In this document: piece by piece, positions 18,010-63,375 of the stretch | Position numbering within the stretch: the stretch's first letter is position 1 | Layout of the letters: each line of letters begins with the position of its first letter | NCBI RefSeq assembly: GCF_024502345.1 | Contig: NZ_JALDNN010000001.1 | From: Escherichia coli | GTDB taxonomy: Bacteria > Pseudomonadota > Gammaproteobacteria > Enterobacterales > Enterobacteriaceae | Length of the DNA: 64,000 bases | Reading direction: 5' to 3' (one strand) | The notes under the pieces: generated by a model | Databases searched by the model: none | What the model was told of the DNA's origin: nothing | Seen by the model: the letters and a program-made list of their open reading frames with translations, nothing else | Program-made: the position numbers and the translations under genes

Positions 18010-18832
18010 GTGTTCCCCGCGCCAGCGGGGATAAACCGCGCGATTTGTTAGCGCCCGTTGCGCCTGGTGGGTGTTCCCCGCGCCAGCGGGGATAAACCGC
18101 GCGAGTTCGTGCGCATGGGGCGCATTTTTGGCGTGTTCCCCGCGCCAGCGGGGATAAACCGCGGCGTTCATGCCCTCCAGCACTGTTACGCGGGTGTTCC
18201 CCGCGCCAGCGGGGATAAACCGTAGTCAAGCGGTAATTCATCGCCTGCAGATCCGAGTTCCCCGCGCCAGCGGGGATAAACCGGCTAATTTACGTAATTT
18301 ACGTGCTATTGCACTGAGTTCCCCGCGCCAGCGGGGATAAACCGTGGGTCATGCCGGTGATCGCCTGCCCGTCGTGGAGTTCCCCGCGCCAGCGGGGATA
18401 AACCATCACCACCGCTTGTCATAAAATTAGCGTCATAGAGTTCCCCGCGCCAGCGGGGATAAACCGGGGAGTGGCACTTCTGGGGTAGCGGCGGCCCTGA
18501 GTTCCCCGCGCCAGCGGGGATAAACCGTCAACGCGCTCAGACGTTGCGTGAGTGAACCAGAGTTCCCCGCGCCAGCGGGGATAAACCGAAATATCCAGGG
18601 CTGGGCTGGAGGCAGACGGCGAGTTCCCCGCGCCAGCGGGGATAAACCGGCGTTGATGTTCTTGCGGGTGTTGCAAATATTGAGTTCCCCGCGCCAGCGG
18701 GGATAAACCGTTTCAGCAGTTCAGCGTAACACCGACGGTCACGAGTTCCCCGCGCCAGCGGGGATAAACCGCCCGGAATGCATTCTGAAGGTTTGCTGTA
18801 TATGAGTTCCCCGCGCCAGCGGGGATAAACCA
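18010..18832 (+). CRISPR. type I-E CRISPR array, 14 repeats and 13 spacers, leader on the low-coordinate side
   Basis: 29-bp repeat G(T/A)GTTCCCCGCGCCAGCGGGGATAAACCG at 18010, 18071, 18133, 18194, 18255, 18316, 18377, 18438, 18499, 18560, 18621, 18682, 18743, 18804; spacers 32 bp (one of 33). Confidence 0.97.
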
Positions 18833-35870: not shown

Positions 35871-38135
<2,265 letters not shown>

Positions 38136-48468: not shown

Positions 48469-48530
48469 ATCGGCGGAACCAGGCTTTTGCTTGAATGTTC
48501 CGTCAAGGGATCACGGGTAGGAGCCACCTT

Positions 48531-49523
48531 ATGAGTCAGAATACGCTGAAAGTTCATGATTTAAATGAAGATGCGGAATTTGATGAGAACGGAGTTGAGG
48601 TTTTTGACGAAAAGGCCTTAGTAGAAGAGGAACCCAGTGATAACGATTTGGCCGAAGAGGAACTGTTATCGCAGGGAGCCACACAGCGTGTGTTGGACGC
48701 GACTCAGCTTTACCTTGGTGAGATTGGTTATTCACCACTGTTAACGGCCGAAGAAGAAGTTTATTTTGCGCGTCGCGCACTGCGTGGAGATGTCGCCTCT
48801 CGCCGCCGGATGATCGAGAGTAACTTGCGTCTGGTGGTAAAAATTGCCCGCCGTTATGGCAATCGTGGTCTGGCGTTGCTGGACCTTATCGAAGAGGGCA
48901 ACCTGGGGCTGATTCGCGCGGTAGAGAAGTTTGACCCGGAACGTGGTTTCCGCTTCTCAACATACGCAACCTGGTGGATTCGCCAGACGATTGAACGGGC
49001 GATTATGAACCAAACCCGTACTATTCGTTTGCCGATTCACATCGTAAAGGAGCTGAACGTTTACCTGCGAACCGCACGTGAGTTGTCCCATAAGCTGGAC
49101 CATGAACCAAGTGCGGAAGAGATCGCAGAGCAACTGGATAAGCCAGTTGATGACGTCAGCCGTATGCTTCGTCTTAACGAGCGCATTACCTCGGTAGACA
49201 CCCCGCTGGGTGGTGATTCCGAAAAAGCGTTGCTGGACATCCTGGCCGATGAAAAAGAGAACGGTCCGGAAGATACCACGCAAGATGACGATATGAAGCA
49301 GAGCATCGTCAAATGGCTGTTCGAGCTGAACGCCAAACAGCGTGAAGTACTGGCACGTCGATTCGGTTTGCTGGGGTACGAAGCGGCAACACTGGAAGAT
49401 GTAGGTCGTGAAATTGGCCTCACCCGTGAACGTGTTCGCCAGATTCAGGTTGAAGGCCTGCGCCGTTTGCGCGAAATCCTGCAAACGCAGGGGCTGAATA
49501 TCGAAGCGCTGTTCCGCGAATAA
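48531..49523 (+). CDS. rpoS: RNA polymerase sigma factor RpoS (sigma-38)
   Basis: Start at [11 protein letters not shown] (330 aa); sigma-70 family regions 2-4; no premature stop. Confidence 0.95.
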
Positions 49524-49643: not shown

Positions 49644-50084
49644 CTATGTGCTCATCATCTTGCGCACCAACTGCATAAACAGCTCCTGCTCTTCTACACT
49701 CAAACGCCCCAAAAATTCCTCATCCACGCGGTCACCAATCGGTATCGCCGCAGCAAGTATCTTTTCTCCTTCGGCAGTCAGCCAGACAAAGCGTCGCCGC
49801 TTATCAGCGGCGTCATGTTCACGTCTGACTAAGCCACGATTTTCCATTCTTGCCAACATTTCTGCCAGCGTTGCTTTGGTGCTGACTGCTGCTTCTATCA
49901 GTGCCACCTGTTCGATACCAGGCTTATCAGCAATGGCACGCATCACCGCATACTGTGGTTTGGTCAGGTCAGGTAACTCGTGCTGCCAGCGAGCCGTGTG
50001 CTGCTGAAAAAGCTGTCGTAACTGATGGAACGCTTTATTTCGTAACGCCATGTAAACTCCGGGCAAACTATCTGCCGCTATCAT
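49644..50084 (-). CDS. MarR/SlyA-family transcriptional regulator
   Basis: 146-aa ORF with winged-helix region typical of MarR proteins; divergent from the UbiX-like gene. Confidence 0.75.
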   Translation of the reverse strand: MIAADSLPGVYMALRNKAFHQLRQLFQQHTARWQHELPDLTKPQYAVMRAIADKPGIEQVALIEAAVSTKATLAEMLARMENRGLVRREHDAADKRRRFVWLTAEGEKILAAAIPIGDRVDEEFLGRLSVEEQELFMQLVRKMMST

Positions 50085-50197: not shown

Positions 50198-50791
50198 ATG
50201 AAACTGATCGTCGGGATGACAGGGGCTACCGGTGCGCCTCTTGGTGTGGCATTACTGCAAGCGCTGCGGGAGATGCCGAATGTCGAGACTCATCTGGTGA
50301 TGTCGAAGTGGGCGAAAACCACCATTGAACTGGAAACGCCTTACAGCGCCCGCGATGTTGCTGCCCTCGCTGACTTCAGCCATAACCCGGCGGATCAGGC
50401 GGCGACCATCTCCTCAGGTTCCTTTCGTACCGACGGCATGATCGTTATTCCGTGCAGTATGAAAACGCTCGCCGGTATCCGCGCTGGTTACGCTGATGGC
50501 CTGGTAGGGCGCGCGGCGGACGTCGTGCTCAAAGAAGGCCGCAAACTGGTGCTGGTGCCGCGTGAAATGCCGCTTAGCACCATCCATCTCGAAAATATGC
50601 TCGCACTTTCACGCATGGGCGTGGCGATGGTGCCGCCGATGCCTGCCTTTTATAACCATCCCGAAACGGTAGATGACATTGTCCACCATGTAGTAGCCCG
50701 CGTGCTGGATCAATTTGGCCTCGAACATCCCCACGCCAGGCGCTGGCAAGGATTGCCGCAGGCCGGGAATTTTTCTCAGGAGAATGAATAA
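50198..50791 (+). CDS. UbiX-like flavin prenyltransferase (decarboxylase subunit B)
   Basis: 197-aa ORF, MKLIVGMTGATGAPLG start, flavoprotein fold. Confidence 0.85.
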   Translation: MKLIVGMTGATGAPLGVALLQALREMPNVETHLVMSKWAKTTIELETPYSARDVAALADFSHNPADQAATISSGSFRTDGMIVIPCSMKTLAGIRAGYADGLVGRAADVVLKEGRKLVLVPREMPLSTIHLENMLALSRMGVAMVPPMPAFYNHPETVDDIVHHVVARVLDQFGLEHPHARRWQGLPQAGNFSQENE

Positions 50792-52217
50792 TGGCATTTG
50801 ATGATTTACGCAGCTTTTTACAGGCGCTTGATGACCACGGCCAGTTACTGAAAATCAGCGAAGAGGTGAACGCGGAACCGGATCTGGCTGCCGCTGCCAA
50901 CGCCACCGGGCGTATCGGCGATGGTGCACCGGCGCTGTGGTTTGATAATATTCGCGGTTTTACCGATGCCCGCGTGGCGATGAATACCATCGGTTCCTGG
51001 CAGAACCACGCGATTTCCCTCGGCCTGCCGCCAAACACTCCGGTCAAAAAGCAGATTGATGAGTTTATCCGCCGCTGGGATAACTTCCCGATTGCCCCGG
51101 AGCGCCGCGCCAATCCTGCCTGGGCGCAGAACACCGTTGATAGCGACGAGATTAACCTGTTCGATATCCTGCCGCTGTTTCGTTTAAACGATGGCGATGG
51201 CGGTTTCTATCTCGACAAAGCGTGCGTGGTTTCCCGCGATCCGCTCGACCCAGATAACTTCGGCAAGCAGAACGTCGGCATCTACCGCATGGAAGTGAAG
51301 GGCAAGCGTAAGCTCGGCCTGCAACCGGTGCCGATGCACGATATCGCCCTGCATCTGCATAAAGCAGAAGAGCGCGGTGAAGATCTGCCGATTGCGATCA
51401 CGCTCGGTAACGATCCGATCATCACGCTGATGGGGGCCACGCCGCTGAAATACGATCAGTCTGAGTATGAAATGGCAGGCGCGCTGCGTGAAAGCCCGTA
51501 CCCGATCGCCACCGCCCCGCTGACCGGTTTTGATGTGCCGTGGGGTTCAGAAGTGATCCTCGAAGGGGTCATCAAAAGCCGTAAACGCGAAATCGAGGGG
51601 CCGTTCGGTGAGTTTACCGGGCACTACTCCGGCGGGCGTAACATGACCGTGGTGCGTATCGATAAAGTCTCTTACCGCACCAGGCCGATTTTCGAATCGC
51701 TGTACCTCGGCATGCCGTGGACCGAAATCGACTACCTGATGGGGCCAGCCACCTGCGTACCGCTGTATCAACAACTGAAAGCCGAGTTCCCGGAAGTGCA
51801 GGCGGTAAACGCCATGTACACCCACGGCCTGCTGGCGATTATCTCCACCAAAAAACGCTACGGCGGCTTTGCCCGCGGGTGGGCCTGCGTGCGATGACCA
51901 CGCCGCACGGTCTGGGCTACGTAAAGATGGTGATTATGGTCGATGAAGACGTTGACCCGTTCAACCTGCCGCAGGTGATGTGGGCGCTCTCCTCGAAAGT
52001 GAACCCGGCAGGGGATTTGGTGCAGTTGCCGAATATGTCCGTGCTGGAACTCGACCCAGGCTCAAGCCCGGCAGGGATCACCGACAAGCTGATTATCGAC
52101 GCCACCACGCCTGTTGCCCCGGACAACCGTGGTCACTACAGCCAGCCGGTGGTGGATTTGCCGGAAACCAAAGCCTGGGCTGAAAAACTGACCACTATGC
52201 TGGCTGCACGTAAATAA
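50791..52217 (+). pseudogene. UbiD-family decarboxylase (subunit C) interrupted by a frameshift near 51874-51879
   Basis: Two overlapping track ORFs (50791-51897 and 51717-52217) in different frames together span about 475 codons; the frame switches between GGFAR and VGLRAMTTPHGLGYVKM. Confidence 0.7.
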
Positions 52218-52227
52218 GGAGAACAAG

Positions 52228-52464
52228 ATGATTTGTCCACGTTGTGCCGATGAACAGATTGAAGTGATGGTGAAATCGCCGGTGAAAGATGTCTGGACGG
52301 TATATCAGTGCCAGCATTGCCTTTATACCTGGCGCGATACCGAACCGCTACGCCGCACCAGTCGCGAACATTACCCGGAAGCGTTCCGCATGACGCAGAA
52401 AGATATTGATGATGCGCCAATGGTGCCGAGCATCCCGCCGCTGCTGGCGGAAGGTAAGCGCTAA
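52228..52464 (+). CDS. small zinc-ribbon protein (decarboxylase subunit D-like)
   Basis: 78-aa ORF with CPRC ... CQHC pairs; third gene of the UbiX/UbiD-like operon. Confidence 0.7.
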   Translation: MICPRCADEQIEVMVKSPVKDVWTVYQCQHCLYTWRDTEPLRRTSREHYPEAFRMTQKDIDDAPMVPSIPPLLAEGKR

Positions 52465-52503: not shown

Positions 52504-53868
52504 TCAAATTACCGCCCATACGCACCAGGTAATTAAGAATCCGGTAAAACCGAGAATGGTCGTTAACACTGTCCAGGTTTTCAGACCGTCTGCTACCGAC
52601 AACCCCAGATATTTGGTCACAATCCAGAACCCTGAGTCATTAATATGTGACGCGCCAAGCCCACCAAAGCAGGCTGCCAGCGTCACCAATACGCACTGAA
52701 TCGGATTCAATCCCATCACCGCTTCTGAGAGTAACCCGCCGGTTGTCAGGATTGCTACGGTTGCTGACCCCTGCGATGCACGCAGCGCCAGTGAAATAAT
52801 AAATGCGGCTGGTAACAGAGGCAGGTCAATCATTTGTAGCATGTTGGCAAGGGCTTTGCCGACGCCCGATTCCACCAGCACTTTGCCAAATACCCCTCCA
52901 GCACCAGTAACCAAAATCACTACCGCCGCAGTGGGAAGGGCTGAGCCCATAATGTCGCTGGTGTGTTGTAAGCTCCAGCCGCGACGTAAAGCCAATAACC
53001 AGAATGCCAGCACCAGCGCAATCATTAGAGCTACCATTGGTGAGCCGATCAGCTGTAGCGTACCAAGCAGGGGATGCGAAGGCGGCATCAGTGTTGCGGA
53101 AACCGTACCCGCCATGATAATCGCGATAGGAATAACAATTAGCGAGGTGACCAGCGCGACGCCCGGTGGATTTATTTTATCGCTTAATTTTGTCGCGCCT
53201 TCCTCACTGGCCGGAGCCAGTTGCATCTGTTCCAGTACTTCCACCGACATCGCATATTGGCGTTTATTGATTATTTTCGCTGCAAAGTAGCCAACAACCC
53301 CTACGGGAATAGAAATCGCAATACCGATGATGGTTAGCCAGCCGATGTCTGCGTGGAGTAACCCCGCTGCGGCGACAGGGCCTGGATGCGGCGGTACCGC
53401 CACGTGAACAGTGAGCATGATCCCAGCGACAGGCAGGCCAAATTTGAGTGGCGATATTTTGGCTACCTTGGCAAAACCGTAAATGATTGGCGCAAGAATA
53501 ATAAAGCCGACATCAAAGAAGACGGGAATACCGAGGAAGAACGCTGCCAGAGTCAGCGCAGCGATAGTTCGTTTGTCACCTAACTTGCGACTGAAATAAT
53601 TAGCCAGTGATTCTGCACCACCAGAGTGTTCGATCATACGCCCCAGCATAGCGCCCAGACCAATAATAATAGTGACGGAACCAAGCACACCGCCCATCCC
53701 GGCGATCATCACTTTACCCACTTCGCCCGCCGGTATACCCGCCGCAAGTGCGACTAACAGGCTGACGAGGAGCAGAGCAACGAATGGTTGTACCTTTGCC
53801 TTGATGACCAGCAGCAACAGCATGATTACGCCAGCTAACGCAATGCATAACAATGTAATTGTGGACAT
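52504..53868 (-). CDS. ygbN: GntP-family permease
   Basis: 454-aa multi-pass membrane ORF. Confidence 0.85.
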   Translation of the reverse strand: MSTITLLCIALAGVIMLLLLVIKAKVQPFVALLLVSLLVALAAGIPAGEVGKVMIAGMGGVLGSVTIIIGLGAMLGRMIEHSGGAESLANYFSRKLGDKRTIAALTLAAFFLGIPVFFDVGFIILAPIIYGFAKVAKISPLKFGLPVAGIMLTVHVAVPPHPGPVAAAGLLHADIGWLTIIGIAISIPVGVVGYFAAKIINKRQYAMSVEVLEQMQLAPASEEGATKLSDKINPPGVALVTSLIVIPIAIIMAGTVSATLMPPSHPLLGTLQLIGSPMVALMIALVLAFWLLALRRGWSLQHTSDIMGSALPTAAVVILVTGAGGVFGKVLVESGVGKALANMLQMIDLPLLPAAFIISLALRASQGSATVAILTTGGLLSEAVMGLNPIQCVLVTLAACFGGLGASHINDSGFWIVTKYLGLSVADGLKTWTVLTTILGFTGFLITWCVWAVI

Positions 53869-62073: not shown

Positions 62074-63375
62074 GTGCATGATAACGGAGTCTTTATGGCA
62101 GGAAAACAAGAGGGAAAGCCACTTTCGTTTAAAGGGGTAGAAATGATGAAGCCAGGCGATAAAGATAAGGCTGATGTAGGCGAAAATCGTGGCTTACGTG
62201 TCTCCTGTGGTGCAACTGGTGTTAAGTCTTTTTTCTACCGTTACACAAGTCCTCTGACTGGCAAACTTGCTCAGGTTAAAATTGGTAACTTCCCGCAGAC
62301 TTCTCTCGCCGCTGCACGTCTTAAACTTCATGAATTAAAGCTCCTCCGGCAGGAAGGTCGGTGCCCTGCGTCAGAGCTTAAGCAAGATAAGCTCCAGCGT
62401 GCGATTGAAGCTGAACAGGCTAAGATCCCTGAATTGACCGTACAGGGATTAGTTGAACTGTATCTTACTGAACGTATTGAGGATCGTAAAACGAAGGACG
62501 GGAAGGTCATTCCCGGTGCCAGAAAACCGAAAGGACAGGCTGAGGTTCGTCGTACTCTCTATGGTGACGCTGTTAAAAGTTTAGGAACCCGGAATGCTGC
62601 TGAGATAACGCGCCAGGATGTTATTAATTTAATCAATGGCATTGTAGCTCGGGGCGCAACCGTACAGGCAGGGAATGTACTGAGAGAACTTTCACTCGCA
62701 TATGAATTTGCAATTGGACTTGGGCGCTTTGATGACAGTTTTGCGAATCCAGCGCTGTTAGCAAAATCTAGCTTACGACAGACCAGAATCAAGCTCACAA
62801 ATGGACGTGGAACACGAGTACTGAGTGAGGACGAGCTTGCAAAATTCCTTAAATGGCTACCGGGTTCGGCTTACACGCCAACGATCAAAAACGTGTTACG
62901 TCTGACTCTCTGGACCGGGTGTCGTACCGGTGAAGTCTGCAATATGGCATGGAAGGATGTTGATCTTGAAAAAGGCACCATTCATCTTAGAGAAACCAAG
63001 ACTGGAGTAGAGCGTTACGTTCAGTTATCGGATCAAGCGATCGACTTTCTCAAGGTTCTACGCCTTACCTCTGACAAATATCTATTCCCTTCACAAGCCA
63101 CTAAAAAGCCAATCCAGCAGAAGTATCTAACTGAAAACTCATGGCGTTTACGTGAAAGCGGTCAAATGCTTGATATACCTCATTGGACGCCGCATGATCT
63201 GCGTCGTACAGTACGAACGGGCTTATCTCGTTTGCAGTGTCCAAATGAGGTGGCTGAGGCCGTATTGGGGCATACACGAGGCGGTGTTGAAGGGATTTAT
63301 AATCTGTATAAGTATGATGCTGAGTGTAGGAAGTGGTTGCAGGTGTGGGCGGATTATTTAGATACTTTAACGTAA
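62074..63375 (+). CDS. int: tyrosine-type site-specific integrase (P4-like)
   Basis: N-terminal arm-binding pattern KPGDKDK...GLRV...RY; C-terminal catalytic HDLRRT and LGHTRGGVEGIYNLY; the true start may be a downstream Met. Confidence 0.85.
   Translation: MHDNGVFMAGKQEGKPLSFKGVEMMKPGDKDKADVGENRGLRVSCGATGVKSFFYRYTSPLTGKLAQVKIGNFPQTSLAAARLKLHELKLLRQEGRCPASELKQDKLQRAIEAEQAKIPELTVQGLVELYLTERIEDRKTKDGKVIPGARKPKGQAEVRRTLYGDAVKSLGTRNAAEITRQDVINLINGIVARGATVQAGNVLRELSLAYEFAIGLGRFDDSFANPALLAKSSLRQTRIKLTNGRGTRVLSEDELAKFLKWLPGSAYTPTIKNVLRLTLWTGCRTGEVCNMAWKDVDLEKGTIHLRETKTGVERYVQLSDQAIDFLKVLRLTSDKYLFPSQATKKPIQQKYLTENSWRLRESGQMLDIPHWTPHDLRRTVRTGLSRLQCPNEVAEAVLGHTRGGVEGIYNLYKYDAECRKWLQVWADYLDTLT

Follow-up and report, generated by a model that had tools for sequence, protein, structure and literature searches.

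A single-base deletion in a rare Escherichia coli lineage splits the gene for subunit C of a hydroxyarylic acid decarboxylase

The stretch of DNA analyzed here (64,000 nt; "the window") is Escherichia coli chromosome, and the surroundings of the gene under study are those of the E. coli rpoS-mutS region, in the "pattern IV" arrangement: that is, rpoS, a MarR-family regulator, a decarboxylase operon with subunits B, C, and D, ygbN, and, farther on, pphB and mutS. The gene rpoS lies at positions 48495-49523. It is followed by an intact slyA/kpdR-like regulator gene on the minus strand (49644-50084; Pfam MarR, E = 7e-12), which is divergent from the decarboxylase operon and is annotated as MarR family in the closest intact allele, L001. 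The operon itself, on the plus strand, begins with an intact gene for subunit B (VdcB/KpdB/EcdB; 50198-50791), a 197-aa flavin prenyltransferase of the UbiX family (Pfam Flavoprotein, E = 2e-44; NCBIfam VdcB, 312 bits with a cut-off of 290). Subunit C (VdcC/KpdC/YclC/EcdC; UbiD family) follows in two pieces, an N-terminal fragment of 368 aa at 50791-51897 and a C-terminal remnant in the -1 frame, 107 aa from the ATG at 51894, at 51894-52217. The operon ends with an intact gene for subunit D (VdcD/KpdD/EcdD; 52228-52464), a 78-aa zinc-ribbon protein with two CxxC motifs (NCBIfam VdcD, 120 bits with a cut-off of 30) that has a strong Shine-Dalgarno sequence of its own (AAGGAG; duplex energy -9.3 kcal/mol). 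The VdcB and VdcD partners thus directly flank subunit C, upstream and downstream, respectively. On the minus strand, ygbN (52504-53868) comes next, and beyond it are further ygb genes, pphB, and mutS. The window's remaining long genes are full length, which indicates that the assembly is not riddled with indels. The locus has been described as pattern IV of the polymorphic o454(ygbN)-nlpD region, with kpdD, kpdC (yclC), kpdB, and slyA; patterns I-IV of the rpoS-mutS region are defined by presence or absence of whole operons and vary with phylogroup (PMC4209514). The subunit C gene is matched in 2415 of 5426 complete RefSeq E. coli genomes, and about 55% of these genomes are without it; together with the presence-absence patterns, this indicates that the operon is a dispensable accessory operon.

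Three other features of the window were recorded in passing. Between cysH and iap, the interval that holds the type I-E cas operon in K-12, lies a 753-aa open reading frame (35874-38135, plus strand) in which Cas3, with HD and helicase domains, is fused in frame to the C-terminal ~68 residues of Cas2e. The Cas3 part covers positions 4-665 of 878 of the NCBIfam Cas3 model, and the fusion looks like what is left after an internal deletion took out the 3' end of cas3, casABCDE, cas1, and the 5' end of cas2. Contiguous cas3/cas2e junctions of this kind are present in 19 of the 5426 complete E. coli genomes, at identities no higher than 93%. A short CRISPR-like array at 18196-18404 (61-bp period, 3.4 copies, type I-E-style repeat GTTCCCCGCGCCAGCGGGGATAAACCG) presumably persists as an orphan, given the deletion of the cas operon. 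Just past mutS, at the edge of the window, a gene for a 433-aa tyrosine recombinase with Phage_integrase and Arm DNA-binding domains (62074-63375, plus strand) suggests an integrated element on the mutS-fhlA side of the polymorphic region.

The subunit C locus carries the whole domain series of the family, UbiD_N, UbiD, and UbiD_C, but divides the last of the three between two reading frames. The frame that opens at 50791 encodes 368 aa with the terminal residues KKRYGGFARGWACVR and stops at the TGA at 51895-51897; the second frame is open from 51666/51717 up to 52217, contains RVGLRAMTTPHGLGYVKMVIMVDEDVDPFNL and VGLRAMTTPHGLGYVKMVIMVDEDVDPFNL, and overlaps the first by 232 nt (51666-51897). 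In Pfam searches the first product matches UbiD_N, UbiD, and positions 2-51 of UbiD_C, and the second matches positions 53-127 of the 127 positions of UbiD_C; a single UbiD_C domain is cut in two exactly at the site reported in the first-pass annotation. The intact allele L001 scores 790.8 bits against NCBIfam NF041204, VdcC ("non-oxidative hydroxyarylic acid decarboxylases subunit C"; cut-off 650), a cut-off that neither product of the window reaches (606.1 bits for the 368-aa product and 157.3 bits for the 107-aa product). We conclude that the locus is a subunit C member by descent and that neither open reading frame is a complete subunit C.

The lesion was defined by alignment with the two closest intact alleles, L001 (NZ_CP104613; 99.9% identical) and L002 (NZ_CP134358; 99.3% identical). 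The alignment contains one gap: a C is absent between positions 51877 and 51878, so that intact GCCCGCGCGGTGGGC reads GCCCGCGGGTGGGC in the window. The missing base is the C of codon 363 (GCG, Ala), and the allele is designated ΔC1088; the gene spans 1428 bases in the RefSeq records and 1427 in the window. When the C is put back, the result is a 1428-nt open reading frame of 475 aa with no internal stop; that is, as in a frameshift pseudogene, there is one indel relative to close intact orthologues, and its reversion restores the frame. The ancestral CGCGCGG becomes CGCGGG in the window, so the deletion struck a (CG)3 run, CGCGCG, in the ancestral sequence, and not a homopolymer, and the GGG of the window was created by the deletion. 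In the protein, E262K is the sole non-native residue among residues 1-362; residues 363-368 read GWACVR in place of AVGLRA, and a stop follows. Native residues 369-475 are unchanged in the other frame, the 107 aa being identical to those of L001, and the premature TGA overlaps the ATG of native Met369 (51894-51896) as ATGA. The E262K substitution (A for G at 51574, plus strand; identified by alignment of carriers, intact alleles, and other alleles) lies 303 bp upstream of the deletion. Residue 262 is variable among enterobacterial orthologues and is Pro in Sedimentibacter VdcC; since the position is not conserved among orthologues, E262K is probably neutral.

These results bear out most of what the first-pass annotation had read from the letters alone. 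It had described a UbiD-like decarboxylase gene split by a frameshift, with a stop of the 50791 frame at 51895-51897, an indel at about 51874-51879, and a joined protein of about 475 aa, and each of these statements agrees with the alignment; the comparison with intact orthologues that it proposed identified the indel as one missing C. Its statement that the conserved continuation runs to 52217 also stands, but the frame, which it labeled +1, is -1 (equivalently +2). Its statement that a single-base gain or loss would rejoin the frames is right for a gain of one base and wrong for a further loss of one base.

Carriers of the same allele were located via an index of exact proteins. The exact 368-aa product is indexed on contigs of independent public assemblies, the 107-aa product (P0016) is present exactly in public collections, and the identical deletion at the DNA level is found in eight public samples: GCA_050022275.1, ERZ27268145, ERZ19693311, ERZ27268317, ERZ10621112, ERZ28657917, SRR10692701, and ERZ19695678. 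The naming styles of the contigs suggest that the eight assemblies were made with different assemblers or pipelines. Every carrier of the deletion has E262K and one and the same subunit-D haplotype, and E262K is absent from the intact and other alleles compared. Between carriers there are 0-45 SNPs per 13 kb; these are mostly synonymous and form the tight clusters that recombination imports typically leave. Subunits B and D and the MarR-family regulator are intact in all carriers, and in subunits B, C, and D of the carriers there is no secondary decay, that is, no further stop or indel. Among complete RefSeq E. coli genomes, 1839 match the 81-bp junction, and 0 of them have the deletion. Nor did the mutant junction turn up when JGI metagenome contigs were scanned for the exact pattern, and the literature searched appears to contain no description of the allele. 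The 13-kb haplotype of the window is no more than 99.0% identical to any complete RefSeq genome, whereas the barA-eno segment of the window shares 99.9% identity with ordinary E. coli, O26 and O103 strains being among its top matches. The ΔC1088 allele is thus already in public assemblies, and its distribution indicates that the deletion is genuine and inherited, arose once, and has for some time been in circulation in a rare lineage, because a read error would neither co-segregate with linked SNPs nor be missing from 1839 genomes whose local sequence is the same.

The consequence for the protein can be read from the closest solved structure, the VdcCD enzyme of Sedimentibacter hydroxybenzoicus (7AE4, 7AE5, and 7AE7; E = 1e-160, 54% identity). 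[quoted passage not shown] We positioned the break by ungapped alignment to 7AE4 and the domain boundaries of PMC8379154. The hinge T325/S326 aligns without gaps to T321/C322 of the E. coli protein, and codon 363 therefore sits 41 residues into the oligomerization domain. (An AlphaFold2 model of the intact protein, made from a 7-sequence alignment, had a mean pLDDT of 34.4 and a pTM of 0.21, was unusable, and was discarded.) In this lineage, then, the gene for the prFMN-dependent, UbiD-family catalytic subunit of a non-oxidative decarboxylase of the 4-hydroxybenzoate/vanillate type has lost one C in codon 363; translation runs out of frame for six codons (GWACVR) and ends at the stop at 51895-51897; and the truncated product retains the whole prFMN-binding domain and only the first 41 residues of the oligomerization domain, the domain that supplies one half of the active-site cleft and builds the hexameric core. 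The 368-aa product is without about two-thirds of the oligomerization domain and the C-terminal helix, and its six terminal residues are wrong. With a break 41 residues inside the oligomerization domain, the protein is most likely inactive and probably unstable, a loss of activity that we infer from the position of the break. We consider it highly probable that the locus represents a genuine, single-origin deletion in a rare lineage and is a young pseudogene of an accessory operon that the species can do without. The intact state of B, D, and the regulator and the lack of secondary decay fit recent loss, and are compatible with residual function as well.

The subunit C gene is lost repeatedly. 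Tracing of lesions through the 107-aa fragment (P0016, P0026) revealed at least six other independent subunit C lesions in public data, at least seven with ΔC1088. One of these is a change of A6 to A5 at the equivalent of 51850-51855, on at least two haplotype backgrounds (L012 [NZ_AP024130.1], L013, L014, L016, L017, L019, L026, and L027), which is present in 1 of the 2310 complete genomes that match that junction, strain SI-NP020. Further disruptions lie at nt 969-1094 of subunit C in public assemblies (L010, L021, L024, L025, and L028), and the lesions recorded are an insertion of C at nt 1081, a 2-bp deletion at nt 971, an insertion of T at nt 996, an 11-bp deletion at nt 991, and a deletion of ~130 bp in a 5.09-Mb contig. 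Two others, a 26-bp deletion and a gap (L018 and L022), may be scaffold artefacts, Ns being present in these loci. In one further locus, L023, the 3' part of the gene is joined to a histidine-kinase open reading frame; this may be a rearrangement or a chimera.

The number of lesions raises the question of whether the loss is adaptive: that is, whether some gut E. coli are under positive selection to inactivate subunit C, for example because this spares them toxic phenol or guaiacol. At least seven independent lesions, and the common absence of the whole operon, speak for it; but relaxed selection accounts for the same data, and each allele is rare (ΔC1088 in no complete genome, A6 to A5 in one). 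The clustering of the lesions does not add to the case, since it comes from the search key: the 107-aa key, which begins at Met369, detects lesions only just upstream, at about nt 900-1100, and the concentration of lesions in that interval is therefore an artefact of ascertainment. A mutational hot spot, proposed on the strength of independent indels within 30 bp, was rejected as unproven on account of the same bias. We regard adaptive loss as unlikely.

According to a second alternative, the gene has become a functional enzyme in two chains: ribosomes stop at the TGA at 51895-51897 and restart at the overlapping ATG of Met369, and the two chains, of 368 and 107 aa, come together again with subunit D as an active decarboxylase. 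Several features of the junction are compatible with this. The stop and the start overlap as ATGA at a native Met; an SD-like sequence, GGGUGG, lies 11-17 nt upstream of the ATG with a duplex energy of -6.4 kcal/mol, which ranks second among 24 internal ATGs, the genuine start of subunit C having -7.4; only six residues (363-368) are altered and the C-terminal fragment is 100% native; and none of the carriers has decayed further. A separate 107-aa C-terminal piece could, on these grounds, be translated from Met369. Against an active two-chain enzyme, both the chain break and the six altered residues lie within the oligomerization domain, at positions 51-53 of 127 of UbiD_C, and not at a domain boundary; the arrangement occurs in a single rare lineage and in none of 1839 other genomes; and the breaks in other lineages lie at other sites and include larger deletions, which is a pattern of decay and not of a selected architecture. 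Variation in the C-terminal fragment, although synonymous only, is clustered in one carrier and import-like and gives no sign of continued purifying selection, a comparison that has no power here, inasmuch as the carriers were chosen by exact protein identity and the variation lies in recombination-like tracts. We therefore judge a split, active enzyme to be very improbable; if true, it would be a two-chain decarboxylase that amounts to a natural fragment-complementation experiment on the oligomerization domain.

A third alternative, and one of the two that the first-pass annotation had offered, is that the gene is intact in the organism and that a C was dropped in a GC-rich stretch during sequencing or assembly. 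GC-rich CGCGCGG contexts can give compressions or miscalls, and the deletion is in no complete RefSeq genome. The same deletion, though, is present in eight independent assemblies from several studies and co-segregates perfectly with E262K and a specific subunit-D haplotype; the C is read without trouble in 1839 genomes of the same local sequence; and the window's other genes are full length. Nor was the ancestral site a homopolymer, as the first-pass annotation had supposed. Of its two options, a genuine mutation is supported, and for this allele sequencing error is effectively excluded. Last, programmed -1 ribosomal frameshifting or transcriptional slippage that would yield a full-length protein has almost no chance of being correct and was rejected, since, although a -1 shift anywhere in the 232-nt overlap would give a long product and an A6 run is available at 51850-51855, there is no slippery heptamer, that is, no zero-frame X XXY YYZ, in 51666-51897 (TTTAAAC at 51183, well upstream of this zone, is the sole instance in the gene), a shift placed at the A6 run would leave ~9 codons mistranslated, and the two-frame layout is not conserved, orthologues having one continuous frame and 0 of 1839 complete genomes sharing the layout.

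We conclude that ΔC1088 is an ordinary lineage-specific frameshift pseudogene in a known accessory operon, of a type that annotation pipelines routinely flag. The proper annotation of the locus is a frameshifted pseudogene of decarboxylase subunit C, and neither two hypothetical genes nor a "corrected" sequencing error. Strains of the lineage are predicted to be without 4-hydroxybenzoate/vanillate decarboxylation through this system, and the deletion together with E262K provides a clean lineage marker that is recognizable in gut metagenomes. The many independent lesions of subunit C are further signs that, in E. coli, accessory genes are gained and lost in the rpoS-mutS region. Beyond annotation, the significance of the allele is small.

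Comparison with known systems places the lesion in context. The VdcCD/ShdCD system of Sedimentibacter hydroxybenzoicus and the BsdBCD/YclBCD system of B. subtilis have the same B-C-D trio as the E. coli locus. The Sedimentibacter subunit C aligns end to end with the intact E. coli allele, and the UbiX-type B and the zinc-ribbon D with two CxxC motifs are alike in the two; in contrast to Sedimentibacter VdcCD, the E. coli carrier has a subunit C that is broken at codon 363, and has no full-length catalytic subunit. The closest parallel to the lesion itself is the allele of SI-NP020 (NZ_AP024130.1, locus FFK26_RS05350), which PGAP annotates as a "frameshifted" pseudogene and which has the same outcome: a 368-aa N-terminal fragment that ends at the same TGA, and a 107-aa remnant. 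The SI-NP020 lesion is nevertheless independent, being the change of A6 to A5, 27 bp upstream of the ΔC site, on a haplotype that is ~97% identical. Within E. coli, the locus is the same as the kpdBCD/ecdBCD/yclBCD locus of pattern IV and pattern I strains (PMC4209514), and the window shares the gene order of the pattern IV reference (E2348/69-type): ygbN, kpdD, kpdC, kpdB, the slyA-like regulator, and rpoS. The reference alleles of patterns IV and I are intact, whereas the lineage of the window has ΔC1088 and E262K.
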